Below, one piece after another: positions 30,640 to 57,629 of a DNA stretch of 64,000 bases. A program made the translations under genes and the position numbers. Numbering within the stretch: position 1 is the first letter of the stretch; every line of letters begins with the position of its first letter. Source of the DNA: a virus (Duplodnaviria; Caudoviricetes); the IMG/VR virus record IMGVR_UViG_3300028412_000003; one strand, given 5' to 3'. The notes below the pieces were generated by a model. That model was given only the letters and a program-made list of their open reading frames with translations, searched no databases and was not told the DNA's origin.

Positions 30640-30987
30640 ATGGACGAAAGACTTGAAAAGGCGTTAGAATTTTCTAACTATACTGTCACTTTAAATAATC
30701 AGATACGATTATTAAGTGAAAAATTTGCAGAAAATAATATCTACTATTACGGCGGTGGACAATTTACTGCCACCGAACAACGTATGACTTTTTGTGATAT
30801 GTTGGTTAATAGAGGACTTGAATCTGTTACGTTAATAGACGATAATGGAACACCAATTGATATAACTGATATTTCCCAGTTTCTTCAAGAAATTATGGAT
30901 CTTTATTTTTCATCAACTAACGAATTTAGAACAGAATATGATAAGCTTCGAAAGAATCGCTCAGTTAAAGGAATAACCGAACTGTGA
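30640..30987 (+). CDS. Hypothetical protein, possibly a tail fibre assembly chaperone
   Basis: 115-aa ORF with AGGAGG SD and TAAGTA element upstream. GGQF.A...LIDDN..P..I.D loosely recalls fibre chaperones; weak. Confidence 0.35.
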   Translation: MDERLEKALEFSNYTVTLNNQIRLLSEKFAENNIYYYGGGQFTATEQRMTFCDMLVNRGLESVTLIDDNGTPIDITDISQFLQEIMDLYFSSTNEFRTEYDKLRKNRSVKGITEL

Positions 30988-31817
30988 GCAAAGGTATATT
31001 AGTTTTTGCTAGGAATAATAGTCAGGTTGATTATGTTAAACAAGCAGTATTTTTGGCAATAAGGGCAAAAGAATATTTAAACTTACCAGTTTCGATAGCA
31101 ACCGATGCAATTGACTATGTTAACACATTTCCAAAAGTTTTTGATCAAATCATTTCTGTTCCGTTTAGAGAAGGCAAATCATTAAAGAGATATCACAATG
31201 GAACACTAGTTCAAAAACAACTTGAATTTAAAAATGATGATAGGGTTAGGGCTTATGACCTAACCCCTTACGACGAAACATTAGTATTAGACACCGACAT
31301 AATAATAGGTGATGACAAATATCTTCATTGCTTTACTCAAATCGAAGATTTGTTGATGTATAAAACAGCATATGACTTGGCAAACTTTCGTGATTATTCA
31401 GAATTTAAATATCTTTATGATGCAGGGATAGATTTCTATTGGGCAACTTGTGTGTTCTTTCGTAAAACTAAAACTAATAAAATCTTTTTTGATCTCCTTC
31501 AACATATACAAGACAACTGGTACCATTACAGAACTATATTCCAAATAAGACAATCTACTTTTAGAAACGACCATGCTTTTAGTATAGGTGTACACATAAT
31601 GAACGGATATCAAAGTGGAAATTTTGCATCAGCTATGCCCGGAAAGTTATTTTACACAGCGGATAGAGATATATTGTGGGAATTAAAGGGCAATCAATAT
31701 TTGTTTCTAATTGAAAAACCAAATTATTTAGGAGAATATACTCCTATCAAATTTAAAGGTACTATACACGTTATGAATAAATTTAGTCTAAGTGATGTGA
31801 TTGATAAGGAAATCTAA
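30984..31817 (+). CDS. GT-A-fold glycosyltransferase-like protein (family A, copy 1)
   Basis: AYDLTPYDETLVLDTD (DxD motif in GT8/GT71-like context), YWATCVFF, RNDHAFSI. Confidence 0.65.
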   Translation: MSKGILVFARNNSQVDYVKQAVFLAIRAKEYLNLPVSIATDAIDYVNTFPKVFDQIISVPFREGKSLKRYHNGTLVQKQLEFKNDDRVRAYDLTPYDETLVLDTDIIIGDDKYLHCFTQIEDLLMYKTAYDLANFRDYSEFKYLYDAGIDFYWATCVFFRKTKTNKIFFDLLQHIQDNWYHYRTIFQIRQSTFRNDHAFSIGVHIMNGYQSGNFASAMPGKLFYTADRDILWELKGNQYLFLIEKPNYLGEYTPIKFKGTIHVMNKFSLSDVIDKEI

Positions 31818-32653
31818 TGAAAGGATATTTGGTATTAGCTCAAAATTCAGAATATGATTATGTCCTCCAAGCATGTTTATTAGCAATGAGTTTGCATGCC
31901 ACAAATCAAGATCCAAAAATTTCTATTGTAACTGATGATGTTGTACCTTCTAAATATGTTAAATATTTTGATCAGATTATTTCAATTCCTTGGGGGGACA
32001 GTGCAATCGACAGCACATGGAAGGTAGAAAACAGATGGAAGTTATATCATGTTAGTCCATATGAAGAAACTATTGTTATGGATACTGATATGCTCGTGCT
32101 ACAAGACCTTACAGCGTGGTGGAATTTTTTAAGCAGTTACAGCGTGTATTTTGTAAGCAACCCCTGTACATACCGCGCACAAACGGTTACAAGCATGTAT
32201 TATCGTGGGGGCTTTGTTGCTAATGACCTCGCTAATTTGTACTCAGGATTTCATTATTTTAAAAAGTGTGATCAAGCTAAATTACTTTATAAATGGATAG
32301 AGTTTATAACACAAAATTGGGAAAGATTTTATGGAGAATTTCATTCTGAAAAATATCCCAATAGAGTATCAATGGATGTAACCGCAGCAATAGCAGCTAA
32401 GATACTTAATATTGAAAATGAAATAATAAATTCGTTAGCAAAATATCCAACTTTTACACATATGAAACCTCATTGTCAAGACTGGCAGTTTCCTAAAGAT
32501 TCGTGGCGCAAAGTTGTTGATGTTCATTTAACTCCTGAACTTGATTTGTTTATAGGTAATTTTAGACAAAGTGGAATTTTTCATTACACAGAAAAAGAAT
32601 TTGTAACAGATAAAATAATTAAAATTTATGAGGATTATTTGAATGAACTTTAA
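31817..32653 (+). CDS. GT-A-fold glycosyltransferase-like protein (family A, copy 2)
   Basis: LYHVSPYEETIVMDTDML (DxD), LYSGFHYFKK, FTHMKP; paralog of 30984. Confidence 0.65.
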   Translation: MKGYLVLAQNSEYDYVLQACLLAMSLHATNQDPKISIVTDDVVPSKYVKYFDQIISIPWGDSAIDSTWKVENRWKLYHVSPYEETIVMDTDMLVLQDLTAWWNFLSSYSVYFVSNPCTYRAQTVTSMYYRGGFVANDLANLYSGFHYFKKCDQAKLLYKWIEFITQNWERFYGEFHSEKYPNRVSMDVTAAIAAKILNIENEIINSLAKYPTFTHMKPHCQDWQFPKDSWRKVVDVHLTPELDLFIGNFRQSGIFHYTEKEFVTDKIIKIYEDYLNEL

Positions 32654-33254
32654 GATAGGGAAATATAAATTAGAACAACGAACAATAGAACCAACTAGTT
32701 TCTATGTCTATTTTGATCCTGCAAAATTAAAAATTGAGAAGATAACAAATTTACCTGCGGAAAATTATGAAGAGATTTCTTTTTTTCTAACTACACATGA
32801 TGTAGTTAAAAACTTTTTAGACGGAACAAGAAAAATCGAAGATGCTAAAATTTCTTTTAATCCAGAATTAAAAGAATTTGAGATTGTAAAACTCAATCAA
32901 AAAGAATTAACAGTACACGATTATATATATGAATTACTTGAGTGTGAGGATGCAGACATTTCTCTCATACTTGATTATTCTAATACATGTTGGAAGATAT
33001 TGCTAAGTGAAAGATTTATGATATCGCTTTCTCTTAATAATGTTATAATCGATTCATTGTTGCAGTTTTCGGTAACAGAAAAAGGAAATCCTAATATACT
33101 TCATAAGATGATAAAAGTTCCTTTTGACCATTTGGGATCGAATAATTATTATATTATTCCGTTTGATTCTCAATTTGAACTTGACAAAACACCGGTTTCA
33201 ATTTACACTATGAAGAAGTTTAATTCGTATTCTTTTGAGGTAATAGATGAGTAA
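32643..33254 (+). CDS. Hypothetical protein
   Basis: 203-aa ORF overlapping both neighbours; no motif recognised. Confidence 0.6.
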   Translation: MNFKIGKYKLEQRTIEPTSFYVYFDPAKLKIEKITNLPAENYEEISFFLTTHDVVKNFLDGTRKIEDAKISFNPELKEFEIVKLNQKELTVHDYIYELLECEDADISLILDYSNTCWKILLSERFMISLSLNNVIIDSLLQFSVTEKGNPNILHKMIKVPFDHLGSNNYYIIPFDSQFELDKTPVSIYTMKKFNSYSFEVIDE

Positions 33255-34170
33255 AAAATTTCGAGTAATAGATTATGACATAATATATCTAAGTTATGAT
33301 GAACCAAATGCTGAAAAAAATTATAATGATTTGTGTCGTAAAGTGCCCTGGGCAAAAAGAGTACACGGAGTAAAAGGGTCTGATGCTGCTCACAAGGCTT
33401 GTGCAGAGTTATCAGAAACCGATCGGTTTATAACAGTAGACGGGGACAATATAATTCGAGCAGACTTTCTTAGCCAAGAGATAGATTTTGAAGAACATCG
33501 AGATTTAGAAAAGTCTGTTATATCTTGGTGCGGAAATAATGTAGTAAATGGATTAATGTATGGCAATGGTGGATTAAAATGTTGGTCAAAGCAATATGTA
33601 TTAGATATGAAGACACACGAAAATGCAGATCAGGATAATCCACATGCACAAGTTGATTTTTGTTGGGACGTAGAGTACATACAAATGAATTCATGTTATT
33701 CGGATGTGTATAATAATTCTACTCCCCATCAGGCATGGAGAGCAGGATTTCGTGAAGGTGTTAAGATGAGTTTAGATCGTGGCATTCGACCTACAAAAGA
33801 AGAATTCTTAAAGAATCACTGGAAGAATTTACATCGGCTTTATATATGGTTAATGGTAGGAAAAGATATAAAGAATGGTAACTGGGCAATAATGGGCGCA
33901 AGACACGGATTATATATGACAATGTGTACTGGTAACAATTGGGATTATATACAGGTAAGAGATTTTGAATATCTTAATGAGTTATGGGAACAAACAAAAA
34001 CAGAATACGAAGTTAATGAGTTTTCAGAAGAATTAGGAAAAATGATAATTAAAGAATTAGAAATTCCTATATCAGCAATTCCTCTAAATTCAGAACAGAG
34101 TTTGTTCTTTAAAGAAGTTTATCAAAATCCAGCTAGGTCGTCAACTCAGCAATTTATAGACAAGGAATAG
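33247..34170 (+). CDS. GT-A-fold glycosyltransferase-like protein (family B, copy 1)
   Basis: YDIIYLSYDEPNAE.NY, AH.ACA..S.TD.FITVDGDN (DxD), YGNGGLK.W, AWRAGFREGVK. Confidence 0.6.
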   Translation: MSKKFRVIDYDIIYLSYDEPNAEKNYNDLCRKVPWAKRVHGVKGSDAAHKACAELSETDRFITVDGDNIIRADFLSQEIDFEEHRDLEKSVISWCGNNVVNGLMYGNGGLKCWSKQYVLDMKTHENADQDNPHAQVDFCWDVEYIQMNSCYSDVYNNSTPHQAWRAGFREGVKMSLDRGIRPTKEEFLKNHWKNLHRLYIWLMVGKDIKNGNWAIMGARHGLYMTMCTGNNWDYIQVRDFEYLNELWEQTKTEYEVNEFSEELGKMIIKELEIPISAIPLNSEQSLFFKEVYQNPARSSTQQFIDKE

Positions 34171-34171
34171 T

Positions 34172-35461
34172 ATGGAATCAAAAACATTTTGCGCAATGCC
34201 TTTTATAGGTATTATGCTCAACACAGATACATTTATACGATTTTGTTGTATAGCTTCTGGTCCAGAAGCTATACTTAGAGACGAAAATGGAAAAAAGTTA
34301 GCAGTTGGAACATCTAGTATTGAGGAAGCCTGGAACAGCGAAAGCATGGTAGAAGTAAGGCGTGCAATGATAGAGGGTAAAAAGGTTACAGCTTGTAGTC
34401 ATTGTTATAAGCAAGAAGATATTGGCAAAACAAGTTTTCGTGAAATGATGACAAACGAATGGAAGCATCGTTTAGGCGAATCATTTTATGATTATGTGCA
34501 AGAAGCTGTCGAAAATGATATGAAGATTAAATTGCCTCCTGTATATTTAGATTTGCGACTAGGTAACCTTTGTAATTTAAAATGTCGTATGTGTAATCCA
34601 TTTAATAGTAGCCAAATTGCTAAAGAACATTTTCCTTTGTATGAACAAGATGAAGGATATAAATCCGTTTGGACTTCTGAATTTGGAAATAATCCAATAC
34701 ATTTAAAAGAAGAAGAAGTTGTTTTTGATAGTAATTTTTTATGGAATGAAATTATAGGAATGATACCTAAGCTTCAAAAAGTTTATATGACAGGTGGAGA
34801 ACCTACTCTTATTAAGAACAATTACAGATTTATGGAAGAGTGTGTTGCAGCAGGATATAACGATCAAATAGAATTATTCTTTAACATCAATTGCACTAAC
34901 GTAACTGATAAATTTCTTGACTTAGTTTCAAAATTTAAAAGTATAAAGATTAATTGCAGTATTGACGGTATAGGATCAGTAAATGATTATATTAGATCTC
35001 CTAGTAATTGGAACAAAGTTGATACTAATTTTAGAAAATTAGCATCCTTGTCTAATGTAAGACTTGGAATGAGTCCAGTAATTCAAGTCTATAATATCTT
35101 AGATTGTCATAACATACTTGAGTATGCTAATCAAGTATCAAAAGAATATAATAAATCTATTAGTGTTGATTTTTTGATAAATGATCATCCAACATATTTA
35201 GATGTAACTATTATACCTTTAGAAATACGAAAAAAAGGAATAGAAAACCTTTTAGCCTTTAAACAACAGAATAAAATTGAAGACCATATAACACAAAATA
35301 GTATAAATGGAATAGTAAATTTATTTGGAAGACCATTGAGAGATAATCACAAAGAGATTTATCAAAATTTTATAACTATGACAAAAGCATTAGACAAATC
35401 AAGGAAAGAAAATTTTACTAATTCTATACCAGATCTAGCAAAGGAGTTAAATTTTGAATAA
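34172..35461 (+). CDS. Radical SAM protein with N-terminal SPASM/twitch domain (#1)
   Basis: CNLKCRMC (CxxxCxxC), YMTGGEP; N-terminal CAMPF...CC...CSHC. Confidence 0.9.
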   Translation: MESKTFCAMPFIGIMLNTDTFIRFCCIASGPEAILRDENGKKLAVGTSSIEEAWNSESMVEVRRAMIEGKKVTACSHCYKQEDIGKTSFREMMTNEWKHRLGESFYDYVQEAVENDMKIKLPPVYLDLRLGNLCNLKCRMCNPFNSSQIAKEHFPLYEQDEGYKSVWTSEFGNNPIHLKEEEVVFDSNFLWNEIIGMIPKLQKVYMTGGEPTLIKNNYRFMEECVAAGYNDQIELFFNINCTNVTDKFLDLVSKFKSIKINCSIDGIGSVNDYIRSPSNWNKVDTNFRKLASLSNVRLGMSPVIQVYNILDCHNILEYANQVSKEYNKSISVDFLINDHPTYLDVTIIPLEIRKKGIENLLAFKQQNKIEDHITQNSINGIVNLFGRPLRDNHKEIYQNFITMTKALDKSRKENFTNSIPDLAKELNFE

Positions 35462-36707
35462 CTCAAAAACTTTTTGCGTTCTACCTTGGACACATATGGC
35501 AACATGGACAGATGGTAGCGCCTTACTTTGTTGTGTAGCAAAGAATAGTCATAAGTTAAATCTTAATGATAACACTGTTTCTGAAATCTGGAATAGTGAT
35601 CATTTTAAAGAAGCCCGTGTTAAGATGTTAAACGGAGAAAAAGTTTCAGCATGTGAATCTTGTTACAAGGAAGAAGCAGTTGGAATTAGAAGCCATCGTA
35701 TAAATGAAAATAATCTATGGATTAAAAAATTAGGGCAAGAAAAGATTGATAGTCTAATTGAAGCAACCGACGTTGACGGAACGTTAAATGAAGATTTAGT
35801 TACGTTAGATTTTAGATTAGGTAATACCTGTAATTTACAATGTGTGATGTGCCGTCCTCAAGATAGCAGTATGTGGTTAAACAATGCTAAAAAACTAAAG
35901 GATATACTTGAAACTGAAGCTAAATGGGATTGGCAACACAAAGCAGACATTGATACAACAAGATTTGATTGGTATAAAAATGAAAAATTATGGGCTGATT
36001 TTAACGGTATGTTTTCTAATATACGCCACATTATATTTGCCGGCGGAGAACCATTATTAATTAAAGAACATCTTCGATTAATAAAAAAATTAGTTGAATC
36101 AGGGCATAGTAAAAATATTGAATTACGTTATCACACAAATGGAACTACATTAACTGAAGAAATAATAGATCTTTGGAAAGAATTTAAGTTTGTTGAATTG
36201 ATGGTAAGTATTGATGCATGGGGAAAACATCATGATTATGTTAGATATCCGGCAGACTGGCAGCAAATAATAACTAATCTAAATAGATTAGATAATACAC
36301 CAGATAATATCGATGTTAAGATTTTAGCAACCATACATGCTATGAATATATATTATATTCCGGATTTTGCAACTGAGTTACTTAAACAGGATTTTAAGAA
36401 GATAGGAAAGTTGCATCATGAAGGGTTGTTTCACGCAGGAACCGTACACTGGCCTCGTTATCTTAATATACAAATCTTCCCACAGTGTATTAAACATAAA
36501 ATAAGAGAAAAATGGGAAAGTTATATCGAGTTAAATAAAAATTACCAATGGACTAGTAAAATTAAAAGTCAATTAGAATTTATGGATTCTGAAGATCATT
36601 CAGATTTGTTCCTTCAATATATTGATTATATTGACAAACTTGACAAAATAAGGCATACAGATTTTAGTAAAGTTTTTCCAGAATTTAAGGATATATTAGA
36701 TGGATGA
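35454..36707 (+). CDS. Radical SAM protein with N-terminal SPASM/twitch domain (#2)
   Basis: CNLQCVMC, FAGGEP; N-terminal CVLPW...CC...CESC. Confidence 0.9.
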   Translation: MNNSKTFCVLPWTHMATWTDGSALLCCVAKNSHKLNLNDNTVSEIWNSDHFKEARVKMLNGEKVSACESCYKEEAVGIRSHRINENNLWIKKLGQEKIDSLIEATDVDGTLNEDLVTLDFRLGNTCNLQCVMCRPQDSSMWLNNAKKLKDILETEAKWDWQHKADIDTTRFDWYKNEKLWADFNGMFSNIRHIIFAGGEPLLIKEHLRLIKKLVESGHSKNIELRYHTNGTTLTEEIIDLWKEFKFVELMVSIDAWGKHHDYVRYPADWQQIITNLNRLDNTPDNIDVKILATIHAMNIYYIPDFATELLKQDFKKIGKLHHEGLFHAGTVHWPRYLNIQIFPQCIKHKIREKWESYIELNKNYQWTSKIKSQLEFMDSEDHSDLFLQYIDYIDKLDKIRHTDFSKVFPEFKDILDG

Positions 36708-38067
36708 ATTAGATAAGTTAAGAAGAGATATATTAGAGAGTGAAACATTCTGTTTTTATCCGTTTCTTGAAGTAAGCACAAGACCAAATGGAGTAGTTTT
36801 TCCATGTTGTTATTGGAATGAAAATGATCATTTATCTTTAGAAAAAAGATTAGATGATAAAAATTCTCTTGATACATTCTGGAACAACAAAAAAGTAATT
36901 GATACTAGAAATAAAATATCAAACGGAACTAAAGTTAAGGGTTGTAAAATATGTTATAGAGATGGTGCATCTAGCATGAGGGCTAGAAGTATAAAGGAGC
37001 ATATAAATGATAGAGATAAATTACAGATAGTAAAAGATACTTTAAACAATGAAGGTGTAGCAAAACATTCACCAAAAAAGATAGAACTTAAACCAAGCAA
37101 TCTTTGTAATTTGAAATGTCTAATTTGCAATGCTTATGATTCTTCTCAGATTGAAAAAGAGTTGTCAGACTTAGATGAAAAGTTTAATGGAATTAAAACA
37201 ATAGGTGGAACATTCTCAAGAATAGTAGGAAATCAGTCTGGTGTGTGGGAAGGTAATGTAGGACAATATGTTTTGAATGCTAATTCTAAATCTAAATGGG
37301 CAGAGTCAGATCGATTCTGGGAAGAATTAAAGATATTGCTACCAAAGATAGAAGTTTTAAGTTTTGCAGGAGGCGAACCAACTCTTAATCCTATAGTCAA
37401 TAAAATACTAACCTATTGTGTTGAAACAAAAATATCTAAAAATATCACCGTTTTTATCAGTAGTAATTTTACCAATCTTAATCCTAAATTTCTTTCAAAT
37501 ATGAATAACTTTAAAAAGTTTGAATTAATTGCTAGTATAGATGGTACAGAAAAGGTACAAGAATATACACGGTTTCCTTCTAATTGGAATAAAATAAAAG
37601 AAAACTTTGAAGAAGCTAAGACCTATATGCAAGGCACGGAAATTAAGATATTAACGAATATAACGGTAAGCATAATGAATATATTTCAATTACATGATTT
37701 GTTTTGGTATATTGATGAACAAAGTAGTAAACATCCTTATTACAACGAATGGCCATTTAATATTAATTTAATTAATTTTCCGGAACAGCAACGCATATCG
37801 ATTATACCTCCGGAATTTAGACAAGAGATAATTGATAATCTTAATCATTATCTTGAAAATGGAGATATCATTAAATTCTTTCCTGATTTAAAGATTAAAA
37901 TTGAAATGTTAATACATGAATTAAATAATGAATGGGACAAAGAAGATTCCGTTTTCCAATTAACTAAATTAAAAACTATGTTGGTTACTTTAGATGAGCA
38001 TAGAAAAGTGTCCTATAAGGATGCAATACCAAAACTAGATGAAATATTTAAGGAATACGTAAAATGA
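36700..38067 (+). CDS. Radical SAM protein with N-terminal SPASM/twitch domain (#3)
   Basis: CNLKCLIC, FAGGEP; N-terminal CFYPF...PCC...CKIC. Confidence 0.9.
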   Translation: MDELDKLRRDILESETFCFYPFLEVSTRPNGVVFPCCYWNENDHLSLEKRLDDKNSLDTFWNNKKVIDTRNKISNGTKVKGCKICYRDGASSMRARSIKEHINDRDKLQIVKDTLNNEGVAKHSPKKIELKPSNLCNLKCLICNAYDSSQIEKELSDLDEKFNGIKTIGGTFSRIVGNQSGVWEGNVGQYVLNANSKSKWAESDRFWEELKILLPKIEVLSFAGGEPTLNPIVNKILTYCVETKISKNITVFISSNFTNLNPKFLSNMNNFKKFELIASIDGTEKVQEYTRFPSNWNKIKENFEEAKTYMQGTEIKILTNITVSIMNIFQLHDLFWYIDEQSSKHPYYNEWPFNINLINFPEQQRISIIPPEFRQEIIDNLNHYLENGDIIKFFPDLKIKIEMLIHELNNEWDKEDSVFQLTKLKTMLVTLDEHRKVSYKDAIPKLDEIFKEYVK

Positions 38068-43321: not shown

Positions 43322-43332
43322 GTATTAATATG
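43318..43332 (+). promoter_or_regulatory. Internal late-promoter-like element ATAAGTATTAATATG
   Basis: Exact 15-nt match to 4560-4574; sits in the largest (8-nt) gap of the enzyme cluster. Confidence 0.5.
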
Positions 43333-49194: not shown

Positions 49195-49375
49195 GAAACT
49201 TTGTTCTCAGCCATTTTTAAATTTAACAATAGACAAGACGGGTAAACTAAGTCCTTGTTGTCGAATTCCCTCTTTTTTGAATAGCAACATTAATGAATTT
49301 AGAGAACAAGAAAAAGAAAAGAACATAAAATTTTTAGATTATTGTCCTGAATTTAAGGAATGGTTTGATGTCTAA
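49181..49375 (+). pseudogene. 64-aa internally deleted radical SAM remnant (SPASM N-terminus fused to family C-terminus)
   Basis: LCSQPF.NL.I...G...PCCR matches the family N-terminus; KFLDYCPEFKEWF matches the C-terminus of 49368-50504 (INDYCPEFKEWF). No CxxxCxxC. It may still be translated. Confidence 0.65.
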
Positions 49376-50504
49376 GTATAATTCAAATACCCTTTGTCCT
49401 TTTCCTTTTTCTGGTTTCTGTATAGAACCATCAGGAGTAGCAAAAATGTGTTGCCGGTCAATGCCTTTAACTGATGATAATGGAAAGTTTATCAATATAA
49501 AGGATTATTCTTTTGAAGAAATAAAAAATTTAAAACAAATAAAAGAAGTTCAAGAGTCTATGTTAAAAGGAGAAAAACCCCAAGCATGTCAAAAATGTTG
49601 GAATCAGGAAGCAAAAGGGGTAAAATCTCTCAGGAACTTTATAAGAGGAAGGTCCTGGCATGGAGATTATATATACGATAAAAAAGAATTAATTTATTTA
49701 GATTTAAGACTGAGTAATAAATGTAACCTCAAATGTATTATGTGTTCTCCTGATTCAAGTGATCAAATTGGGATTGAACAAGGAATAGAAAGTGCTTATC
49801 AATCAGCAGAGGTTGCCGAAGAGGTTATTAAACATAGCCCTTATTTAAAAGAAATTTATTTTGCCGGCGGCGAACCTATGCTAGATAACGATCATTTTAA
49901 GATAATAGAACATCTAGTGAAAACTGGAGAAGCAAAGAACGTTGAATTAAAATATAGTACCAATTGTACGACAATAAGAGATAAGTGGTTTGACTTAGCC
50001 AAACACTTTAAGACGATAAAGATGCAACTTAGTATTGATTCAATCGGTTCTAGAGCATTCTATGTTCGGCATCCTAGCAAATGGGATATAATAGAAAAAA
50101 ACATTGATAGGTTGTTGTTAGAAAAACCCAAAAACACTAGACTTTCGATAGATACTGCATTGCATAATATGACGTTATTTGGAATACCAGAATTAATGTT
50201 ATGGGCGGAAAATAAAGGAATAAAACAGAACTTTATAGAAGTAACTTCTCCTAGATATCTACAGATACATATATTACCTAATATTCAAAAAGAAATAATA
50301 ATAGAGCAATTACATAATTCAAATAAAACAAAAAATTTAGTTGATAATAAATGGTTATCTCGTATAGAAGAGATGATAAAGAAAGACCCAACAGTGGAAG
50401 AGGTTCGGCAGTTTAAAGAATATATAAAATATACTGAGAATTTTCGTAATATAAAGATTAATGATTATTGTCCGGAATTTAAGGAATGGTTTAATGAGTT
50501 ATGA
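49368..50504 (+). CDS. Radical SAM protein with N-terminal SPASM/twitch domain (#11)
   Basis: CNLKCIMC, FAGGEP; N-terminal CPFPF...CC...CQKC. Confidence 0.9.
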   Translation: MSKYNSNTLCPFPFSGFCIEPSGVAKMCCRSMPLTDDNGKFINIKDYSFEEIKNLKQIKEVQESMLKGEKPQACQKCWNQEAKGVKSLRNFIRGRSWHGDYIYDKKELIYLDLRLSNKCNLKCIMCSPDSSDQIGIEQGIESAYQSAEVAEEVIKHSPYLKEIYFAGGEPMLDNDHFKIIEHLVKTGEAKNVELKYSTNCTTIRDKWFDLAKHFKTIKMQLSIDSIGSRAFYVRHPSKWDIIEKNIDRLLLEKPKNTRLSIDTALHNMTLFGIPELMLWAENKGIKQNFIEVTSPRYLQIHILPNIQKEIIIEQLHNSNKTKNLVDNKWLSRIEEMIKKDPTVEEVRQFKEYIKYTENFRNIKINDYCPEFKEWFNEL

Positions 50505-51570
50505 TTTTACAAAGATCCCGTTTGAAGATATAGTACGGCTTGGGCAACGCACTATGATACACCGTGACCTTTTTACAGTGAGTTGGTTACTTGGTCGTTT
50601 TTGTAATTATCGTTGTTCATATTGTTGGCCGTATGCCAGGAGTGATCGAAAAGATCACCGTCCTACAGAACTCTGTTTAACAACAATAGATGAGATTAAA
50701 CGACAAGCTAGAAACAATGGATTTAATTCTTTTCATTTTAGTTTTAGTGGAGGTGAACCAACCTTTCATCCGGGTTATTTAGATATATTAAAATACCTAG
50801 CAGATGATGTTTCTAATACAAACGGAACAACAATTCATATGACATCAAATTGTTCTCGTAATATGAAATGGTTTGAGGAATATACAGAAACAGCAAAGTC
50901 TTTTCAGCGTGCTAGTATCACAGCAAGTTTACACACCGAACATGTTAATACTCCGGAAAAGATGCAAGACTTTGCAGACAAATTGATATTTGCTCAAGAA
51001 CAAGATATACAAGTAACTATCAATATGGTAATGGTACCAGAATGGTTTGAACAATCATGGGAAAACGCATTATTCTTTCACAATCAAAATATCAATGTTA
51101 CACTTAAACCACAAAGCGATCCGACCGCATCTCGTATAGTAGATGGATATACAGATGACATGCTTGATAAACTTCATAACGGAATGCCTCAAGAAAATTT
51201 TACAACAATAAAGAGTAAATTTTACAATCGTCCTAAACAGAAAATCTCTATCCCTCAAGACGTTCCTTCTAATATGCAAGTAGAAATGGAAGATTCTAAT
51301 GGAAAGAAATGGTATATAGATCAAGCAGAAAGATTTAATGCTTTTAATTTTAACAAATTTGAAGGCTGGAGTTGTAATGCAGGATATCAGGGTATCATAA
51401 TAAGAGAACCGGATGGTAGTGTTAAGCGTTCATATTCATGTAAAGATCAACCATTAGGTAATATCAAAACAGGATTTAAAATATTTGATACACCTATGCC
51501 GTGTATTACACCGACTTGTGTTTCAAGTGCAGATAGCAAAATACCAAAGAAGAAGAAGAAGAAGATATGA
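50494..51570 (+). CDS. Radical SAM protein with C-terminal Cys-rich domain (#12)
   Basis: Start refined from 50461 to ATG 50494. CNYRCSYC, FSGGEP; C-terminal WSCNAG...SC...CITPTCVS. Confidence 0.9.
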   Translation: MSYDFTKIPFEDIVRLGQRTMIHRDLFTVSWLLGRFCNYRCSYCWPYARSDRKDHRPTELCLTTIDEIKRQARNNGFNSFHFSFSGGEPTFHPGYLDILKYLADDVSNTNGTTIHMTSNCSRNMKWFEEYTETAKSFQRASITASLHTEHVNTPEKMQDFADKLIFAQEQDIQVTINMVMVPEWFEQSWENALFFHNQNINVTLKPQSDPTASRIVDGYTDDMLDKLHNGMPQENFTTIKSKFYNRPKQKISIPQDVPSNMQVEMEDSNGKKWYIDQAERFNAFNFNKFEGWSCNAGYQGIIIREPDGSVKRSYSCKDQPLGNIKTGFKIFDTPMPCITPTCVSSADSKIPKKKKKKI

Positions 51571-52427
51571 TTATAAATGTAAACGAAGTACCTCAAGATA
51601 AAGAAATACTTAGTTTTATAAAGAAACAATTACCAGGAAACGAAGAGGATAGAGTTGGTCCTTTTATTTTTGAAGAGTTAGATGTTTGTGAACTCGGAGT
51701 TAAAACGTCTAATCTTTTAACTTCAGTTGAACAGATTGAAAGATTACATGGGCTTGAAGGATGGCAAAAACAACACGGATATTCAACTCCGCATTATAGA
51801 GGGTTTTCATTAACTTACAACAAGGAGTTTAATGATAAAAGCAGGAGCCAATATCATCAAACTTTTGGATCTAAATTTATAAAAGATTCCTTCTCTCGAG
51901 AAGCGTCTGGAGTAGTTACTATGAAAAATACATATTATGATACATATGCTTTCCGACATTTAAATTCAACAATAAAAGAACATTTTAGCGGGTTATTTTC
52001 TCGCATAAAAGGGGCAATATTACGAAGTCGTGTTGCGTATTTATATTCCGGAGAAATTGACTTAAATACATTTAAAGGAGGATGGCATATAGATGAACCT
52101 CAGTATATGATGTTGAGGTTAGTTATACCCCTTAAGACAAATGAAAATTATTATTTAAGATTTGATGGAGATGATAATCTAGGTAATCAAGCATCGTTTG
52201 ATAAGATACTCGAATACGACAAAGCATACATCTGGAATAACCGTATTCCACATGAGGTTGGGTGTTATAAAAGTGATCCACTTACAGACCCCCGGATTAA
52301 TATGATTGTTGGGTTTTCTCCGTGGTTTGACTACGATGAAGAAAATGATAGATTCGTTTCAAATAGTAATTTTGGAATACCAGTTTCTAGAATAATAAAG
52401 GATAGGTTATTTTTAAATGACAGCTGA
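51567..52427 (+). CDS. Fe(II)/2-oxoglutarate oxygenase, AspH-like cupin (diverged copy)
   Basis: RSRV.YL..G, WHID (HxD), RLVIPL.TN, PHEV (distal His), PRIN; N-terminal Y.GFSLT shared with 54638 and 55390. Confidence 0.65.
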   Translation: MIINVNEVPQDKEILSFIKKQLPGNEEDRVGPFIFEELDVCELGVKTSNLLTSVEQIERLHGLEGWQKQHGYSTPHYRGFSLTYNKEFNDKSRSQYHQTFGSKFIKDSFSREASGVVTMKNTYYDTYAFRHLNSTIKEHFSGLFSRIKGAILRSRVAYLYSGEIDLNTFKGGWHIDEPQYMMLRLVIPLKTNENYYLRFDGDDNLGNQASFDKILEYDKAYIWNNRIPHEVGCYKSDPLTDPRINMIVGFSPWFDYDEENDRFVSNSNFGIPVSRIIKDRLFLNDS

Positions 52428-53136
52428 CACAAAAATTAAGTTATTAGCTATACTGAATCACCTACTCTTTATAGGAGGAGTAGTATATTCATTTTCATGG
52501 ACAGGATTATTATATGGATTTATCATTTACTTGTTAATAGTCACGATTGGAACAAGCATTGGCTATCATAGGTATTACACTCACAAATCATTTAATACCA
52601 ATAAGACATGGGAATTAATTTTCCTTTTCTTCGGAAGCATAGCTTTTTTAGGTCCAGTTATAGCTTGGTCTGGAATACATCGTATACATCATGCTAAGTC
52701 TGATACAAATGAAGATCCACACAGTCCTTTGAATGGGTTTTTTAACACCTGGTTCCATATATTTCCTAATAAGAACATATCACCGAAGTACATAGCAGAT
52801 CTTATAAAAGATCCATGGCTAAAGTTCCAACACAAATGGTATTTTTGCATGGTCACGATTTATTTGGTGTTAGGATATCTAGCAATCGGACATTGGGCAG
52901 TTTATATAATCTCAATGCCAGCTGTGTTGATGTATCATGTAACTGGATTTATCAATAGCGTTAACCATATGATAGGAGAACAAAAATCAAAACATGATCG
53001 ATCAACTAATATTCCTATCTTATCTTTAGTTACTGGAGGAGAATCTTATCATTCTAATCATCATGTGCGTCCAGGAAGTTCGGTTTTTGGTAAGTACGAT
53101 ATAGCTAAGATTTTTTTACCGTGGATTATAAAATGA
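52417..53136 (+). CDS. Membrane-bound fatty acid desaturase (delta-9-like His-box family, copy 1)
   Basis: GYHRYYTH, IHRIHH, DPHSP and YHSNHH His boxes; hydrophobic transmembrane segments. Confidence 0.85.
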   Translation: MTADTKIKLLAILNHLLFIGGVVYSFSWTGLLYGFIIYLLIVTIGTSIGYHRYYTHKSFNTNKTWELIFLFFGSIAFLGPVIAWSGIHRIHHAKSDTNEDPHSPLNGFFNTWFHIFPNKNISPKYIADLIKDPWLKFQHKWYFCMVTIYLVLGYLAIGHWAVYIISMPAVLMYHVTGFINSVNHMIGEQKSKHDRSTNIPILSLVTGGESYHSNHHVRPGSSVFGKYDIAKIFLPWIIK

Positions 53137-54020
53137 ATTATTATGAACTTGAACCAGAAGAAAATACATTTAAAACACTTGTAGTGGACATTACTCATAA
53201 GTGTAATATGGAATGTGCCAATTGTTATATTCCAAATAGAGATATTCCAGATATGGATCTAGATCGTCTTTATGATCTAGCGAAGAGGCTACCTCGGCGC
53301 ACAGAGTTTCGATTGATGGGAGGAGAACCGACTATGCACAAAGATCTACCAGACATAATTTCTACTCTCCGCACGCTAGGTCACAGGCCTACAATACTTA
53401 CTAACGGACTCAGGCTAGGCAATTTAGACTACTGTAAGACGCTTAAAAACGCGGGCTTGCACAGTTTAAACATAAGTCTCAACGGCGCTGATGACGACAA
53501 CATCTATGTTATAACAGATGAACTTAAATGTGCAGAACGTAAAATGAAAGCATTAAGGAATGTCGTTTCTTTAAATATGTTCATCAATATCAATTGTATC
53601 ATACAAAAAGGCGTAAGTGAACCCGTGCCTGGACGGTTAATTGATATATTCCAAAATGAGTTAAACTATCCCGGTGTATTACGATTCCGCAATGTTGGAC
53701 AGATTGGCCGGTTTTCTTTAGGAAAAGAAGACAATTATACCTTTGATGAATTGATAGAGTTCATGGGTAAAGTTACTGGAAAAGATCCTGATTGGATACG
53801 TCAATGGAAACAAGTTGAAGGTTACGACGAAGAACACAACGTACTCTTTCCATTAGATGAAACAAAGAAGAGATCGACCCAGTGGATTAAAATTACGGAT
53901 TGGAGCCCTTCTTTATCTGATATTCCTGATCCAAATAGTATTAGGAGAGGAAGGATCACTCAAGATTTTAAGCTGGCACCTTTCTTTGAGCACGTTAAGG
54001 AAAACGAATTTGGATACTAA
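53133..54020 (+). CDS. Radical SAM protein, MoaA-like core without N-terminal SPASM (#13)
   Basis: Start refined from 53121 to ATG 53133. CNMECANC, LMGGEPT, LTNG.RL, LNISL.G. Confidence 0.85.
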   Translation: MNYYELEPEENTFKTLVVDITHKCNMECANCYIPNRDIPDMDLDRLYDLAKRLPRRTEFRLMGGEPTMHKDLPDIISTLRTLGHRPTILTNGLRLGNLDYCKTLKNAGLHSLNISLNGADDDNIYVITDELKCAERKMKALRNVVSLNMFININCIIQKGVSEPVPGRLIDIFQNELNYPGVLRFRNVGQIGRFSLGKEDNYTFDELIEFMGKVTGKDPDWIRQWKQVEGYDEEHNVLFPLDETKKRSTQWIKITDWSPSLSDIPDPNSIRRGRITQDFKLAPFFEHVKENEFGY

Positions 54021-54645
54021 TTTTAAGAAATATAGAGGAAAGGTGATACTAGCCATAAGCTATTTTTCTTTTGTTATAGGATTTTTTTTCTATAATTGGA
54101 TGTGGATATTTCCTGCGATAGTAGCTGGGTATCTCAGTGTAGCGATCAGTCATTATATTTTGCATTTACATTTTGGCCACAAGACATATAAAGACACCAT
54201 ACAAAATAAATTATTGAGTTTAAGTTGCTTGTTTACTGGGATCGGCACTCCTCTCGAATACGCACTGATACACCGACAGCATCACAAATATAGTGATAAA
54301 AAAGGTGATCCACATTCTCCTGTGCTTGAAGGATTTTGGAACGTGTTATTCTTAAAGATGAATTCAACTAAAATGGAACTTAATTTGATTAGAGATTTCA
54401 TCAAGAGTGAATTCCAACGGAAATTAAATTTACATTTTTTTAAGATATGGATTCTAATTTTTCTTTCAGTATTGATAATTTATCCTCCTGTGGCTTTGTT
54501 TATTATCGCACCAATGTGTATACATGCAACTACGTCAGCTCAACTAATAACAGCGTGTTGTCATAGTAATGGATACGCTGAAAATGTCCCATGGATAGCA
54601 ATTATCAATCCATGGGCGTGGAATCATGGAGATCATCATGAATGA
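54010..54645 (+). CDS. Membrane-bound fatty acid desaturase (His-box family, copy 2)
   Basis: ORF track start 53857 overlaps the upstream gene; likely TTG start at 54010. LHLHFGH, IHRQHH, GDPHSP and NHGDHH boxes; TM segments. Confidence 0.8.
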   Translation: MDTNFKKYRGKVILAISYFSFVIGFFFYNWMWIFPAIVAGYLSVAISHYILHLHFGHKTYKDTIQNKLLSLSCLFTGIGTPLEYALIHRQHHKYSDKKGDPHSPVLEGFWNVLFLKMNSTKMELNLIRDFIKSEFQRKLNLHFFKIWILIFLSVLIIYPPVALFIIAPMCIHATTSAQLITACCHSNGYAENVPWIAIINPWAWNHGDHHE

Positions 54646-55390
54646 TACAATTAAACCAGATCTTAATAAATGGTATGAGCCTTATACAAGTTGGAAAATT
54701 CCAACTAAAAATTGGGCAAAACTAAACGAAAAATATAGTTTTGATCTTGATCTTATGAGATCAAATATAATAGACATAATGCAAAATTATGAACTTAAAC
54801 CGTTTCCTAGTTTCGCTGCGGGACGTTGGGGCCACAACGAGAAAACTAGATTTGATTATAATGGCATTGGGCTTACTTGTAGAGAGGATGCCACAGATCC
54901 TCTCTACGATGCCTTAAATACTTTTAATAGAAGAGAAGTAAAAGACAAGAAATATACAGAAAACGGAATAGTTAATACGTTAACATATGAACGCAATTTT
55001 ACTCAGCGTACTGATGCTTGCACTCCGTATCTAAGTGAGATATTAGATAGATTCAGTTCAACTATGTGTAAAGCCCGTATATTAGAACTTAAACCCGGAG
55101 GGATAATATTTCCACATGTAGATTTTCCTTATTATGAACAAGTGAGATTACATGCACCGATATTCTCAAATGAAGAAACTTTTTGGGAGGTGAATGGTGA
55201 AAGATTTCAGATACCAGAAGATGGAAATTTTTATTGGTTTGACACCGGCAAATATCATTCAGTTGTAAACAAAGGAACCAACCCAAGGATTATGCTATCT
55301 GTAAATTTGTCTATCTACAAAGATAGAAATGATAATTTAATTAACACAGAAGAAAATATAGATGAAATTATAATATCGGATAAAATATAA
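54638..55390 (+). CDS. Fe(II)/2OG oxygenase, aspartyl/asparaginyl beta-hydroxylase (AspH/LpxO)-like
   Basis: Start refined to ATG 54638 (GGAG SD). ARILELKPGG.IFPHVD, VRLHAPI, WFDTGKYHSVVN...PRI.L. Confidence 0.8.
   Translation: MNDTIKPDLNKWYEPYTSWKIPTKNWAKLNEKYSFDLDLMRSNIIDIMQNYELKPFPSFAAGRWGHNEKTRFDYNGIGLTCREDATDPLYDALNTFNRREVKDKKYTENGIVNTLTYERNFTQRTDACTPYLSEILDRFSSTMCKARILELKPGGIIFPHVDFPYYEQVRLHAPIFSNEETFWEVNGERFQIPEDGNFYWFDTGKYHSVVNKGTNPRIMLSVNLSIYKDRNDNLINTEENIDEIIISDKI
54998..55277 (+). repeat. 280-bp exact direct repeat, copy 1
   Basis: Base-by-base comparison shows identity with 55777-56056 (offset 779); flanks diverge on both sides. Confidence 0.9.
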
Positions 55391-56169
55391 TGAGTATAGA
55401 TAAATTTGACACTTCAACAAAGGACATAGGCGATTACAATAATTGGTATCAACCACACACTAAATGGAAAATTCCAGATAGAAATTGGTGTAAGACCCAT
55501 AAGAAATTTAGCTTTGATTTAGATCGTATTCGAGAAGATGTATTGGAAATAAAAGAAACTTTTGGATTTAAAGGATTTCCAATAAAAGGAAAAAAACGTA
55601 GATGGGCATATCAAGGTATTGGATTAACTACACGTCCAGAAGCATCAGATCCTTTGTATGATGCGTTACATACTTATAATAAAGATGACGAAGTTTGTAT
55701 TGATAAGTTTTTTGTTGATCAAGCAACATATGTAAAAGAAGATGAAAAATATGCTCGTTATACCTACGAAAAAAACTTTACTCAGCGTACTGATGCTTGC
55801 ACTCCGTATCTAAGTGAGATATTAGATAGATTCAGTTCAACTATGTGTAAAGCCCGTATATTAGAACTTAAACCCGGAGGGATAATATTTCCACATGTAG
55901 ATTTTCCTTATTATGAACAAGTGAGATTACATGCACCGATATTCTCAAATGAAGAAACTTTTTGGGAGGTGAATGGTGAAAGATTTCAGATACCAGAAGA
56001 TGGAAATTTTTATTGGTTTGACACCGGCAAATATCATTCAGTTGTAAACAAAGGAAAAGAGAGTCGTTTTGTTTTAAGTATAAACCTTTCTTTGTATTAT
56101 GACAAAGACGAAAACCCAACTAATCATGAGATAGATATAGATGAATTCCTTTCTTCAGACAGATTATAA
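55390..56169 (+). CDS. Fe(II)/2OG oxygenase, AspH/LpxO-like (paralog of 54638)
   Basis: Same HVD...H...R motifs; catalytic core identical at nucleotide level to the upstream paralog. Confidence 0.8.
   Translation: MSIDKFDTSTKDIGDYNNWYQPHTKWKIPDRNWCKTHKKFSFDLDRIREDVLEIKETFGFKGFPIKGKKRRWAYQGIGLTTRPEASDPLYDALHTYNKDDEVCIDKFFVDQATYVKEDEKYARYTYEKNFTQRTDACTPYLSEILDRFSSTMCKARILELKPGGIIFPHVDFPYYEQVRLHAPIFSNEETFWEVNGERFQIPEDGNFYWFDTGKYHSVVNKGKESRFVLSINLSLYYDKDENPTNHEIDIDEFLSSDRL
55777..56056 (+). repeat. 280-bp exact direct repeat, copy 2
   Basis: Identical to 54998-55277. Confidence 0.9.
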
Positions 56170-56788
56170 AACTATTGATATAAAAAAAGATGATAATTGG
56201 AGAGAGATCTTTGAAAATTACCGCAATGAAATTTTACAAGCAGATGATGCATTAATAAGGAATTATGCTAAAGACAGGCTTAAAGTTGATGACCATTCTG
56301 GCTTCTTTATCACAATAAATAATTCTTTGGATATTGTTGCTTTCTATGGTGTCTATAAAAGAGACTGGTGGCCCGAAGGATTTTTTAGGATAGGAAATAG
56401 GACTTGGGTTGATCCTCGTTATCGTTCAAAATCTGCAAGGCATCACACAGGATATCCTTTTAGGTTAGGATGGTTATTTACACATGGGCATGATCCTATG
56501 ATTGAATGCTGTAAAGAAAACGGTGGTCTGATTGCGTTTGCATCAAAAGAAAATACCGGACGTAAAAAGAATGTGTTTGTTTATACCGCAGGAATAGAAT
56601 TACCAAAATTAAGACCAGAATGGAGTTTACTTGATGGATACTATAATGTAGTTGGAGTAAACGATACTAAAGATTGCTGGCAGAAAATAACATATAGACA
56701 ACTAACAAATAATGATATTTCCTTTGTTGGATTTGATCATATAAGCGACGAAGAATTTGAAGAGAGATTTATTAATGAAAGTATATAA
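56141..56788 (+). CDS. Putative GNAT-fold acyltransferase
   Basis: IVAFYGV...FRIGNRTWVDPRYR resembles GNAT beta-strand/motif A (V.P.YR). The glycine-rich continuation is not canonical. Confidence 0.4.
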   Translation: MNSFLQTDYKTIDIKKDDNWREIFENYRNEILQADDALIRNYAKDRLKVDDHSGFFITINNSLDIVAFYGVYKRDWWPEGFFRIGNRTWVDPRYRSKSARHHTGYPFRLGWLFTHGHDPMIECCKENGGLIAFASKENTGRKKNVFVYTAGIELPKLRPEWSLLDGYYNVVGVNDTKDCWQKITYRQLTNNDISFVGFDHISDEEFEERFINESI

Positions 56789-57629
56789 TGAAAATTTTGC
56801 AGGATTAGATTATAAGTCTTGGGAATTTGAACAAGTTGGATTAAAAGGTGTTGGAACAAATCACATTCCTATTTTAGGAATGGACAAATACATAGACACT
56901 TCTATGAACGAAGAATTACATGCTGAATGTAGCATTGGATTAGCGTTATGTAACACAATGAAAATGGGAGGATTTTCTGGATCGATTCCTCCTTTTGAAC
57001 AAGAAAAATATGATGGGTTGAACACATGGACTGAGTTGTTAAGAGAAATAGAAAAGTATGATCCAACTGGTTTCCATACAAAGAACATTGAGGAAATATT
57101 AAGGCGTACTAGTAAGAACAACGTTAAAGCGGTTTATCGTTATGTGTATTTTGCAATGGGTGCTCCAATTCCGTGGTTCTTTGCTGTGTATCTTTTAAAT
57201 AATAGCTTTGGTAATAAGACAAATGAAAGTAAAGATTATACCGAAGATGCAAAATATTTTCCTAAGTTAATTGAGTATATAAACAGTTTACCTTTTAAAC
57301 AAATTGGAAGGATACTTTTCTTTACAACATTTCCACATGCTGAAGTAGTGACACACAGAGATGGTCCTATGATAGCACACCGGGATCATAACATAAATCT
57401 ATTCTTTGTTGAATCACGTAAATCATTTGTGTGGAATGATACCGCCAACGAACGGCATTACCTAGACCTTGACCAAAGAAGTTATTTTTTTAATAATAGA
57501 GATTACCATGGTGTAGAAGCAGAAAAAAAGTTCCGTTACACTTTGCGAGTAGACGGAACTTTTGAAGATTGGTTACAAGAGGATTTAGGACTTGTAGATG
57601 GATACACTTGGCATCCATCTTATGACTGA
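56775..57629 (+). CDS. Fe(II)/2OG oxygenase-like cupin protein
   Basis: Start refined from 56757 to ATG 56775. GRILFF...VVTHRD (HxD), YFFNNRDYHGV (His), RY.LRVDG. Confidence 0.65.
   Translation: MKVYNENFAGLDYKSWEFEQVGLKGVGTNHIPILGMDKYIDTSMNEELHAECSIGLALCNTMKMGGFSGSIPPFEQEKYDGLNTWTELLREIEKYDPTGFHTKNIEEILRRTSKNNVKAVYRYVYFAMGAPIPWFFAVYLLNNSFGNKTNESKDYTEDAKYFPKLIEYINSLPFKQIGRILFFTTFPHAEVVTHRDGPMIAHRDHNINLFFVESRKSFVWNDTANERHYLDLDQRSYFFNNRDYHGVEAEKKFRYTLRVDGTFEDWLQEDLGLVDGYTWHPSYD

Follow-up and report, generated by a model that had tools for sequence, protein, structure and literature searches.

The 64,000-nucleotide stretch of viral DNA analyzed here (IMG/VR record IMGVR_UViG_3300028412_000003; hereafter the window) belongs to a contig of about 228 kb from an uncultured myovirus that is present in lake-water metagenomes. 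Behind its tail fiber genes, at positions 30640 to 57629 and wholly on the plus strand, lies an array of 29 open reading frames (ORFs; o01 to o29) of 115 to 462 amino acids (aa), which together with a 64-aa ORF at 49181-49375 make 30 genes in about 27 kb, as had been noted in a preliminary description made from the sequence. On the same strand, the array is preceded by gp5-, gp25-, and gp6-like baseplate genes, an ORF of 5035 aa, and four fiber-like genes that have an N-terminal module in common. Overlaps of 1 to 8 nucleotides (nt) join most genes between 30984 and 49194, almost without a break, and the coding strand switches at 57629/57630. The best explanation for this array is a hypervariable accessory island that ends the presumably late baseplate and fiber operon of an uncultured lake-water jumbo myovirus.

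Searching IMG/VR with an alignment of o05 orthologues returned more than 586 relatives, of which the best 80 loci were mapped. The core genes of the island (o01 to o05, o12, and o13) are listed here with the number of mapped loci in which each occurs.

30640..30987, plus strand: o01, a 115-aa protein that opens the island (72/80 loci; ORF354 in Ralstonia phage RsoM2USA).
30984..31817, plus strand: o02, a GT8-like (glycogenin-like) retaining glycosyltransferase of the GT-A fold, assigned by profile and model (76/80 loci).
31817..32653, plus strand: o03, a GT8-like paralogue of o02 (27% identical, E 3e-13; 76/80 loci).
32643..33254, plus strand: o04, a poorly conserved 203-aa protein (32/80 loci).
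33247..34170, plus strand: o05, a probable GT2-like GT-A domain with a helical C-terminal domain, the best-conserved gene of the island (80/80 loci).
40571..41596, plus strand: o12, an N-terminal part without assignment and a C-terminal GT2-like domain; a paralogue of o05 (69/80 loci).
41577..42257, plus strand: o13, a class I S-adenosylmethionine (SAM)-dependent methyltransferase fold (53/80 loci).

Gene order in the relatives is fixed, running from the fibers through o01, o02, and o03, sometimes o04, to o05, and a fiber gene like that at 29713-30603 lies upstream of the core in all 61 loci that could be tested, namely, those with at least 5 kb of upstream sequence. In 13 loci, the whole island measures only 5.2 to 5.7 kb, consists of o01, o02, o03, o05, and o12 with no radical SAM gene at all, and runs from o12 straight into relatives of the minus-strand block that begins at 58894 in the window. 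An o13-like gene lies on the opposite strand in these minimal islands, between relatives of 60125-60394 and 60396-61706 (loci L102-L124), and the gene therefore moved or was inverted during island expansion. Elsewhere among the 80 loci, 1 to 10 radical SAM genes occur within 10 kb downstream, and relatives of the radical SAM genes o14 and o07 are present in 42 and 41 loci, respectively. One relative, with an o07 orthologue of about 70% identity, also has 13 radical SAM genes, partly different ones; it shares as orthologues only o06-o08 and o12-o15, and its called genes include no member of the desaturase or AspH families. The 80 mapped loci yielded no relative of o22-o29, and a scan of viral contigs with desaturase o23 returned zero relatives.

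The window holds a small conserved island enlarged five-fold, and these comparisons support a conserved core of glycosyltransferases to which exchangeable tailoring cassettes are added. The array had been read in the preliminary description as one pathway, a reading that we reject in its fixed form because the glycosyltransferase and methyltransferase core exists without radical SAM genes: the island is modular. The linkage to the tail fiber module that was proposed at the same time holds for the head of the island, through the 61 loci and RsoM2USA, and finds no support for the distal genes o22-o29. One further contig with these genes, L021 (NZGL01000008.1; 108 kb), is filed under the metagenome-assembled genome (MAG) “Gammaproteobacteria bacterium MED685” and carries phage fiber genes and o01-o07 in phage order; in all likelihood, a contig from a jumbo phage was here binned with bacterial sequence.

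RsoM2USA is the sole source of o02 and o05 relatives among 50,697 phage records. Its genes ORF354 to ORF347 correspond in order to o01, o02, o03, an o04-like gene, o05, one radical SAM gene of the N-twitch type described below, an o12-like gene, and an o13-like gene; they are 22 to 45% identical to their counterparts in the window and lie directly behind the fiber gene ORF355 and the giant virion protein gene ORF361. The paper on this phage does not discuss these genes, all of which are annotated as “hypothetical” (PMC8504454).

The four GT-A-like glycosyltransferases recognized in the preliminary description are upheld by a profile match to glycogenin, by two AlphaFold models, and by the paralogy of o12 and o05, with Pfam blind to all of them. 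A profile of 10 o02/o03 orthologue sequences, searched against the PDB, matches glycogenin at E 5e-6 over its N-terminal 100 residues, and the AlphaFold model of o02 (predicted local distance difference test [pLDDT] score of 86.5) has glycogenin as its top fold match (E 3e-6; template-modeling [TM] score of 0.44-0.50), followed by LARGE1, the UGGT catalytic domain, and the adhesin glycosyltransferase GlyE. At the DxD site of the o02/o03 alignment (A3), D103 is nearly invariant and D105 is invariant; no Pfam family, GT8 included, matches o02 or o03 at E values up to 5. For o05, the model (pLDDT of 80) has best PDB matches that are all of the GT-A fold, with probabilities of 0.97-0.99 but TM scores of about 0.3: the peptide S-glycosyltransferases ThuS/SunS come out best, along with the teichoic-acid transferases RmlT and TarP and the PBCV-1 capsid glycosyltransferase A64R. 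Residues D65 and D67 of o05 are invariant, and its Atlas cluster is named GT2-like; it has no Pfam match. The o12 protein is 33% identical to o05 across 216 aa (BLASTP, E 1e-30), and its gene is kept in the minimal islands that have no radical SAM genes.

The single methyltransferase that had been predicted is likewise borne out by the fold of o13, for which an Atlas structure search gave TM scores of 0.65-0.78 to methyltransferase clusters, sugar O-methyltransferases among them; Pfam and PDB-sequence searches with o13 were empty. The first gene, o01, has no match in Pfam, PHROG, or PDB sequences and may encode a putative fiber chaperone, and a family match for o04 is absent from Pfam and PHROGs. 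PHROGs hold no family for any core gene, PDB sequence searches with o05, o13, o10, o28, and o01 gave nothing significant, and Pfam searches with 10 unassigned ORFs at E values up to 5 gave nothing usable. A strongly hydrophobic segment occurs in no island ORF except the two desaturases described below.

Between and behind the core genes lie the radical SAM genes, together with one remnant.

34172..38067, plus strand: o06, o07, and o08, three N-twitch radical SAM genes (NF033640), of which o06-o07 form a conserved pair.
38064..39047, plus strand: o09, radical SAM group B, with orthologues after the o06-o07 pair in phages and Bdellovibrionales.
42257..43321, plus strand: o14, a radical SAM gene without an N-terminal twitch (71% identical orthologue in L009).
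43330..44718, plus strand: o15, an N-twitch radical SAM gene (61% identical orthologue in L009/L069).
44715..45686, plus strand: o16, radical SAM group B.
45679..49194, plus strand: o17, o18, and o19, three N-twitch radical SAM paralogues.
49181..49375, plus strand: the 64-aa remnant ORF of the radical SAM family, in which a twitch start (CSQPF...PCC) is fused to a C-terminal end (PEFKEWF).
49365..50504, plus strand: o20, an N-twitch radical SAM gene.
50461..51570, plus strand: o21, radical SAM group B.
53121..54020, plus strand: o24, a MoaA/TrsS-like radical SAM gene (Radical_SAM, E 3e-18) between the two desaturases.

The count of 13 radical SAM enzymes in the preliminary description is confirmed by Pfam and NCBIfam, and each protein contains the motif CX3CX2C exactly once. 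Twelve of the 13 score 30.8-67.1 bits against PF04055 (gathering cutoff of 29.5 bits); o15 reaches 25.6 bits, yet its whole length can be aligned with the N-twitch paralogues. The N-twitch family comprises eight paralogues (o06, o07, o08, o15, and o17-o20) that are 21 to 32% identical. A scan with NF033640 (“twitch domain-containing radical SAM protein,” N_Twi_rSAM; curated cutoff of 170 bits) covered o06, o07, and o18, which score 360, 401, and 341 bits, respectively, and the remaining members (o08, o15, o17, o19, and o20) align end to end (E 1e-9 to 1e-85). All eight share an architecture of an N-terminal Cys-rich domain, a CX3CX2C core, and a C-terminal extension. In six of them, the SPASM family of Pfam matches at residues 5-96, before the catalytic core, and five Cys residues of the N-terminal domain are invariant (C7, C25, C26, C75, and C78 in o06 numbering). 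The closest solved sequences are those of the peptide maturases TvgB (8VPO) and SkfB; the solved twitch enzymes BtrN and MoaA match marginally and differ in carrying the twitch domain at the C terminus, whereas in the island family it is N terminal. Our literature searches found no characterized member of NF033640 and no paper on the family, and those for an N-terminal SPASM/twitch family in phages yielded nothing specific.

Three other proteins (o09, o16, and o21) form group B, which lacks the twitch domain and is weakly similar to the STM4011, viperin, and MoaA families, and o14 and o24 fall outside both groups; the NCBIfam matches of o24 are all far below their respective cutoffs. The 64-aa ORF is what an internal deletion has left of a radical SAM paralogue, and a 71-nt repeat (49322-49392 and 50448-50518) flanks it. 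This relic occupies the only free intergenic space of the island (49195-49364), so there is no precursor-peptide gene.

The other tailoring genes and further unassigned ORFs are as follows.

39002..40578, plus strand: o10 and o11, two unassigned proteins.
51567..52427, plus strand: o22, a distant AspH-like (cupin/2-oxoglutarate [2OG]-type) protein with an HxD motif.
52417..53136, plus strand: o23, a membrane His-box desaturase/hydroxylase (FA_desaturase, E 1e-16) with four hydrophobic segments and three His boxes.
53857..54645, plus strand: o25, a second His-box desaturase with transmembrane segments and three His boxes.
54626..56169, plus strand: o26 and o27, tandem Asp/Asn beta-hydroxylase-like oxygenases (Asp_Arg_Hydrox, E 7e-12 and 4e-12).
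56141..56788, plus strand: o28, an unassigned protein.
56757..57629, plus strand: o29, a distant AspH-like protein and the last island gene (a protein of L011 shares 35% identity with it; E 5e-7).

Both predicted His-box desaturases are genuine members of FA_desaturase (PF00487; cutoff of 29.7 bits) at 61.8 bits for o23 and 37.9 bits for o25, and o23 has a 32% identical relative in pelagiphage Mosig. The listed start of o25 lies 164 nt inside o24 (53857-54020) and is probably too far upstream, with the true start further downstream. Of the four Fe/2OG oxygenases named in the preliminary description, o26 and o27 hold, scoring 45.9 and 46.8 bits against PF05118 (cutoff of 22.6 bits) with HVD and the downstream His present; o22 and o29 are only weaker relatives by BLASTP. 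Specifically, o22 matches o26 and o27 at E 5e-5 and 2e-4 and has no Pfam match, and o29 has no direct Pfam match itself, its relative in L011 being the one that Pfam assigns to Asp_Arg_Hydrox. In NCBIfam, the AspH-like proteins also match LpxO weakly. The o26 and o27 proteins are 63% identical, and a 295-nt block (54983-55277 and 55762-56056) that is 98 to 100% identical between their genes looks like a recent gene conversion across the catalytic core.

Two earlier labels find no support. For o10, one of two proteins called SGNH-like with motifs judged by eye, the only match is to DUF6071 and falls below threshold (E 5e-5; 23.4 bits against a cutoff of 27), with a weak relative in Mosig, and o11, the other, has no match in Pfam or PHROGs; o28, described as a Gcn5-related N-acetyltransferase (GNAT), has none in Pfam, PHROGs, or PDB sequences. 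Across the 29 ORFs, Pfam and NCBIfam identify no family for sugar-nucleotide synthesis, flippases, ABC exporters, polymerases, ligases, or priming transferases, and there are no genes for polyketide synthases (PKS), nonribosomal peptide synthetases (NRPS), or carrier proteins among them.

The genes on either side of the island include the following.

8534-23641, plus strand: an ORF of 5035 aa with 2 Cys residues, between the gp6-like wedge gene and the fiber genes.
29713..30603, plus strand: the last fiber-like virion gene before the island, a candidate acceptor (24% Ser+Thr, no Cys).
57630..58853, minus strand: a convergent Ser/Thr-rich, Cys-free fiber-like gene that closes the island without a gap (weak tail-fiber PHROG match).
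58894 to 63616, minus strand: the conserved block.

The 5035-aa ORF has counterparts in RsoM2USA ORF361 (2540 aa) and PA5oct gp355 (3857 aa), which are virion proteins by mass spectrometry (MS). The last fiber gene has a full-length homologue, 30% identical, in PA5oct-type phages; in PA5oct itself it corresponds to gp360, for which the annotation records detection in virions by electrospray ionization tandem MS (ESI-MS/MS). Ser and Thr make up 18 to 24% of the neighboring fiber proteins, which contain 0 to 4 Cys residues. Fiber-type genes thus flank the island on both sides, and relatives of the gene at 57630-58853 sit inside the island in loci L092 and L093. The gp6 homologue shares about 35% identity with those of jumbo phages of the PA5oct, Atu_ph07, SCTP-2, and RsoM2USA type, and a megablast search with 20 kb against cultured phages gave zero matches. 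The window has a GC content of about 33%, and its GC skew stays uniformly positive as far as 57.6 kb. A chimera of phage and bacterium at 30600 or 57630, named in the preliminary description as what might undo it, is rejected because both island junctions recur in independent related contigs, the left in 61 of 61 loci and the right-hand block in 13; the o05-o09 stretch is also assembled identically in three data sets.

No terminator-like site was found between the last fiber gene and o01. Sigma-70 promoter-like sites do not exceed their frequency in shuffled sequences, terminator-like sites do so at most marginally in the first half (13 versus 6.8; standard deviation, 2.7), and the motif TATAAATA does not occur. 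An identical 15-mer, ATAAGTATTAATATG, occurs at 4560-4574 and 43318-43332, ending in the start codon of the gp25-like gene and of o15, respectively, and AATAAATAC lies upstream of both the gp6-like gene and the gene at 23663; the two may be late-promoter or leader elements.

Outside the related phage loci, N-twitch genes recur in several settings. In a scan of species-representative genomes with o07 orthologues, most relatives came from Bdellovibrionales, where identity reaches 50% and the contigs measure up to 2.2 Mb. There (L017-L046; for example, L024, 6587-10252, and L027, 5355-11664), o06-like and o07-like genes are adjacent, 36 to 50% identical to those of the window, and usually accompanied by a group B radical SAM gene. 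The pair occurs in two contexts, either amid housekeeping genes (those for Lon, a patatin-like lipase, a class V aminotransferase, and Nuo) or directly behind two GT2 genes and a class II aminoacyl-tRNA synthetase-like gene. Sphingomonas sp. 37zxx (L053; NZ_JROH01000020.1, 658-17239) has two N-twitch genes in a natural-product-type cluster with a phosphopantetheinyl transferase, two B12-radical SAM enzymes, an EryCIII-like glycosyltransferase, and a large PKS (ketosynthase, acyltransferase, acyl carrier protein, and ketoreductase, with an NMO domain), and KVP40-type vibriophages have three or four N-twitch copies, one adjoining a GT1 gene. Taken together, N-twitch radical SAM genes stand beside glycosyltransferases in four unrelated settings, which favors a glycoconjugate as their substrate. 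In Vibrio phage K566 (L005; OZ196521.1), a gene annotated as PagP, a lipid A palmitoyltransferase, lies at 15724-16173, about 4.5 kb from the N-twitch cluster.

The enzyme classes found support the glycan-type toolkit that the preliminary description had recognized, and our tentative preference, held with somewhat less than even confidence, is that the island builds and tailors a glycan on late virion fiber proteins. The soluble GT8-like and GT2-like transferases would assemble a short glycan from host nucleotide sugars, and o13 would methylate it. The acceptor would be made late and would most likely be the Ser/Thr-rich, Cys-free fiber proteins encoded just upstream, and the twitch-type radical SAM enzymes, alongside the remaining tailoring enzymes, would alter the sugars by oxygen-independent radical chemistry (possibly oxidation, epimerization, deoxygenation, or C-C or C-methyl changes), such that close relatives might display differing glycans on the host-binding apparatus. 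We favor fiber proteins as the acceptor because the nearest structures to o02 and o05 glycosylate proteins, peptides, or protein-bound glycans; because the core contains no membrane protein and Pfam detects no lipid-carrier, export, or sugar-nucleotide genes; and because the island is contiguous with the fiber operon.

Several observations weigh on the other side. In PA5oct, gp360 ends the structural operon with no island behind it, and the fiber therefore does not need the island enzymes. The end of an operon may simply be a permissive landing site for accessory genes, and adjacency within one clade may reflect common descent. Peripheral LPS (lipopolysaccharide) and O-unit transferases also lack transmembrane helices, so soluble glycosyltransferases do not exclude a lipid-linked acceptor, and the TM scores of the o05 fold matches are low. 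The trio of o06, o07, and a group B gene occurs in Bdellovibrionales amid housekeeping genes with no glycosyltransferase nearby; the o06-o07 pair is therefore independent of the island transferases and can use a substrate that they do not make. Finally, desaturases, as membrane enzymes, work on lipids, and the AspH-like proteins, given their weak LpxO match, could do so too; the distal block of desaturases, AspH-like proteins, and a MoaA-like enzyme may be a separate cassette acting on lipids.

That last point leads to the main rival, which we consider unlikely: remodeling of the host envelope, in which the LPS O-chain, core, lipid A, or membrane lipids would be altered, so as to block superinfection or to change the envelope for release. 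The GT8 family is generally known to include LPS core transferases, the distal block combines two membrane His-box desaturases with the AspH-like proteins, a PagP gene lies near the radical SAM cluster of phage K566, and a patatin-like phospholipase gene adjoins the o06-o07 pair in Bdellovibrionales. Against this stand the conserved core, which has no membrane protein; the nearest structures to o02 and o05, which are protein and peptide glycosyltransferases and not of the LgtC/Waa type; and the smaller gain that seroconversion should bring to a strictly lytic jumbo phage than to a temperate one. For other GT8-rich fiber clusters, modification of the host O-chain has been put forward (PMC7029224); in the island, Pfam finds no priming transferase, flippase, polymerase, ligase, or sugar-nucleotide synthesis gene. 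A classical O-antigen, LPS, or capsule locus is rejected, there being no priming, export, or polymerase genes by Pfam or NCBIfam and no transmembrane segments outside the two desaturases.

Direct modification of fiber or other virion proteins by the radical SAM enzymes, in the manner of ribosomally synthesized and posttranslationally modified peptides (RiPPs; through cross-links, epimerization, or C-methylation) and with the glycosyltransferases as a separate decoration, appears very unlikely. It would accord with the peptide maturases among the closest solved sequences and with many weak NCBIfam matches to RiPP maturases, but these must be set against overlapping genes with no precursor-like small ORF (the sole intergenic ORF being the radical SAM remnant), fiber proteins with so few Cys residues that, with only 2 in the 5035-aa protein, thioether chemistry is improbable, and the dispensability of the radical SAM genes in 13 relatives. 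The auxiliary domain, moreover, is twitch-like, with only five conserved Cys residues, a type that is typically found in enzymes acting on small molecules, BtrN and MoaA being examples (PMC4326806). A classical RiPP cluster, which would call for a precursor gene and for fibers that are not Cys poor, is rejected.

It is also rather improbable that the island has no common product, being a set of unrelated accessory genes, or that it yields a free small molecule, a glycolipid, or a modified nucleotide or DNA base, perhaps for conflict with host defenses. Gene content does turn over rapidly between relatives, as in the hyperplastic regions known from cyanomyoviruses (Millard et al. 2009, as cited in PMC7029224), but the order and overlap of the core are kept as far as RsoM2USA, which argues for a shared function at least of the core. 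The Sphingomonas cluster, with its PKS, B12-radical SAM enzymes, and glycosyltransferase, would fit a free product, for which the island has no PKS, NRPS, or carrier-protein genes. The weak matches of group B proteins to viperin, MoaA, and QueE-like families, which act on nucleotides, would fit a modified nucleotide; where DNA is concerned, a thymidylate-synthase-like hydroxymethylase was not found in three related contigs, a weak argument as these are 35 to 47% complete.

Of these readings, a glycan on the fibers is the one that we carry forward, and it invites a broader conjecture, which we regard as doubtful: N-twitch radical SAM proteins may be a large class of oxygen-independent glycan-editing enzymes that jumbo phages shuffle as cassettes to diversify the sugar coat of their tail fibers, with the o06-o07 pair performing related chemistry in predatory Bdellovibrionales. 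If so, N-twitch cassettes would be a virus-encoded counterpart of O-antigen variation, and phages with a fiber glycan would have at their disposal a programmable system for tailoring sugars on the organ that binds the host, with a bearing on host range, evasion of receptor-based defense, and recognition of virions. In any case, the island is rich in unexplored radical SAM chemistry, with 13 enzymes that span three architectures and all lack a characterized relative, and nature has already set up a comparative experiment in the series of islands that carry 0 to 13 such genes on a single conserved core. Its value is raised by the extreme radical SAM load, by an enzyme family that is wholly uncharacterized, and by a cultured phage with the island, since RsoM2USA carries a minimal eight-gene version that makes the question of the acceptor testable on purified virions.

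Among known systems, RsoM2USA is alike in gene order (ORF347-ORF354; MG752970) and in the position of these genes behind a giant virion protein and fiber genes. It differs in having 8 genes with one radical SAM enzyme and no oxygenases or desaturases, against 30 genes in the window, and in being a soil phage of a betaproteobacterium, whereas the window phage comes from lake water. In viruses with glycosylated virions, GT-A transferases and a methyltransferase are likewise encoded near or together with structural genes. Chlorovirus PBCV-1 encodes A64R (PDB 2P6W/2P72/2P73), a soluble GT-A transferase of a class that the window genes also include, and mycobacteriophage capsids and tails are reportedly glycosylated, in work by Freeman et al. 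of 2023. Unlike the window, the PBCV-1 and mycobacteriophage systems are not known to contain radical SAM enzymes, and the glycosylation of their virion proteins was reportedly shown by MS and structure.

Comparable clusters have been published (PMC7029224; PMC5332604), and the novelty is lower than the preliminary description assumed. The marine T4-like virus TARA_ERS488813_N000010, for which Nishimura et al. (2017, PMC5332604) noted 12 radical SAM genes, resembles the window as a large uncultured myovirus with a dozen such genes, a likeness in number, those genes being treated there only as Fe-S cluster clients, without gene context or family. A hyperplastic region is known in cyanomyoviruses (Millard et al. 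2009, cited in PMC7029224). The host recognition cluster (HRC) of pelagimyophages is hypervariable, lies in the structural region with the tail fibers, and is rich in glycosyltransferases, most often of family GT8, and radical SAM cassettes set its relatives apart (Zaragoza-Solas et al. 2020, PMC7029224); its authors offer host O-chain modification as a proposal. It and the window island are alike as large, hypervariable, glycosyltransferase-rich islands beside tail fiber genes with variable radical SAM cassettes. The cultured pelagiphage Mosig has, beside its fiber genes, an AspH-like protein, an N-acetyltransferase, a methylase, a desaturase, three MoaA-like radical SAM enzymes, a sugar aminotransferase, and a carbamoyltransferase, and six window families (o10, o13, o14, o16/o24, o23/o25, and o26/o27) have relatives in it.

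Our literature searches found no paper on the o01-o05 core, and the core of the window (o01-o05, o12, and o13), for which there is no PHROG family, is not described in PMC7029224. Published HRC islands hold sugar-nucleotide genes, which the window lacks, and lie between VrlC and gp14, whereas the window island follows gp5, gp25, gp6, the giant protein, and the fibers and ends at a strand switch. The phages that carry HRCs are T4-like, of the Kyanoviridae type, and the window phage is, by its gp6, a jumbo phage of the PA5oct/Atu_ph07/RsoM2USA type. The window island is best seen as a further case, from a different jumbo-phage lineage, of the fiber-adjacent islands of glycosyltransferase and radical SAM genes known in aquatic myoviruses.

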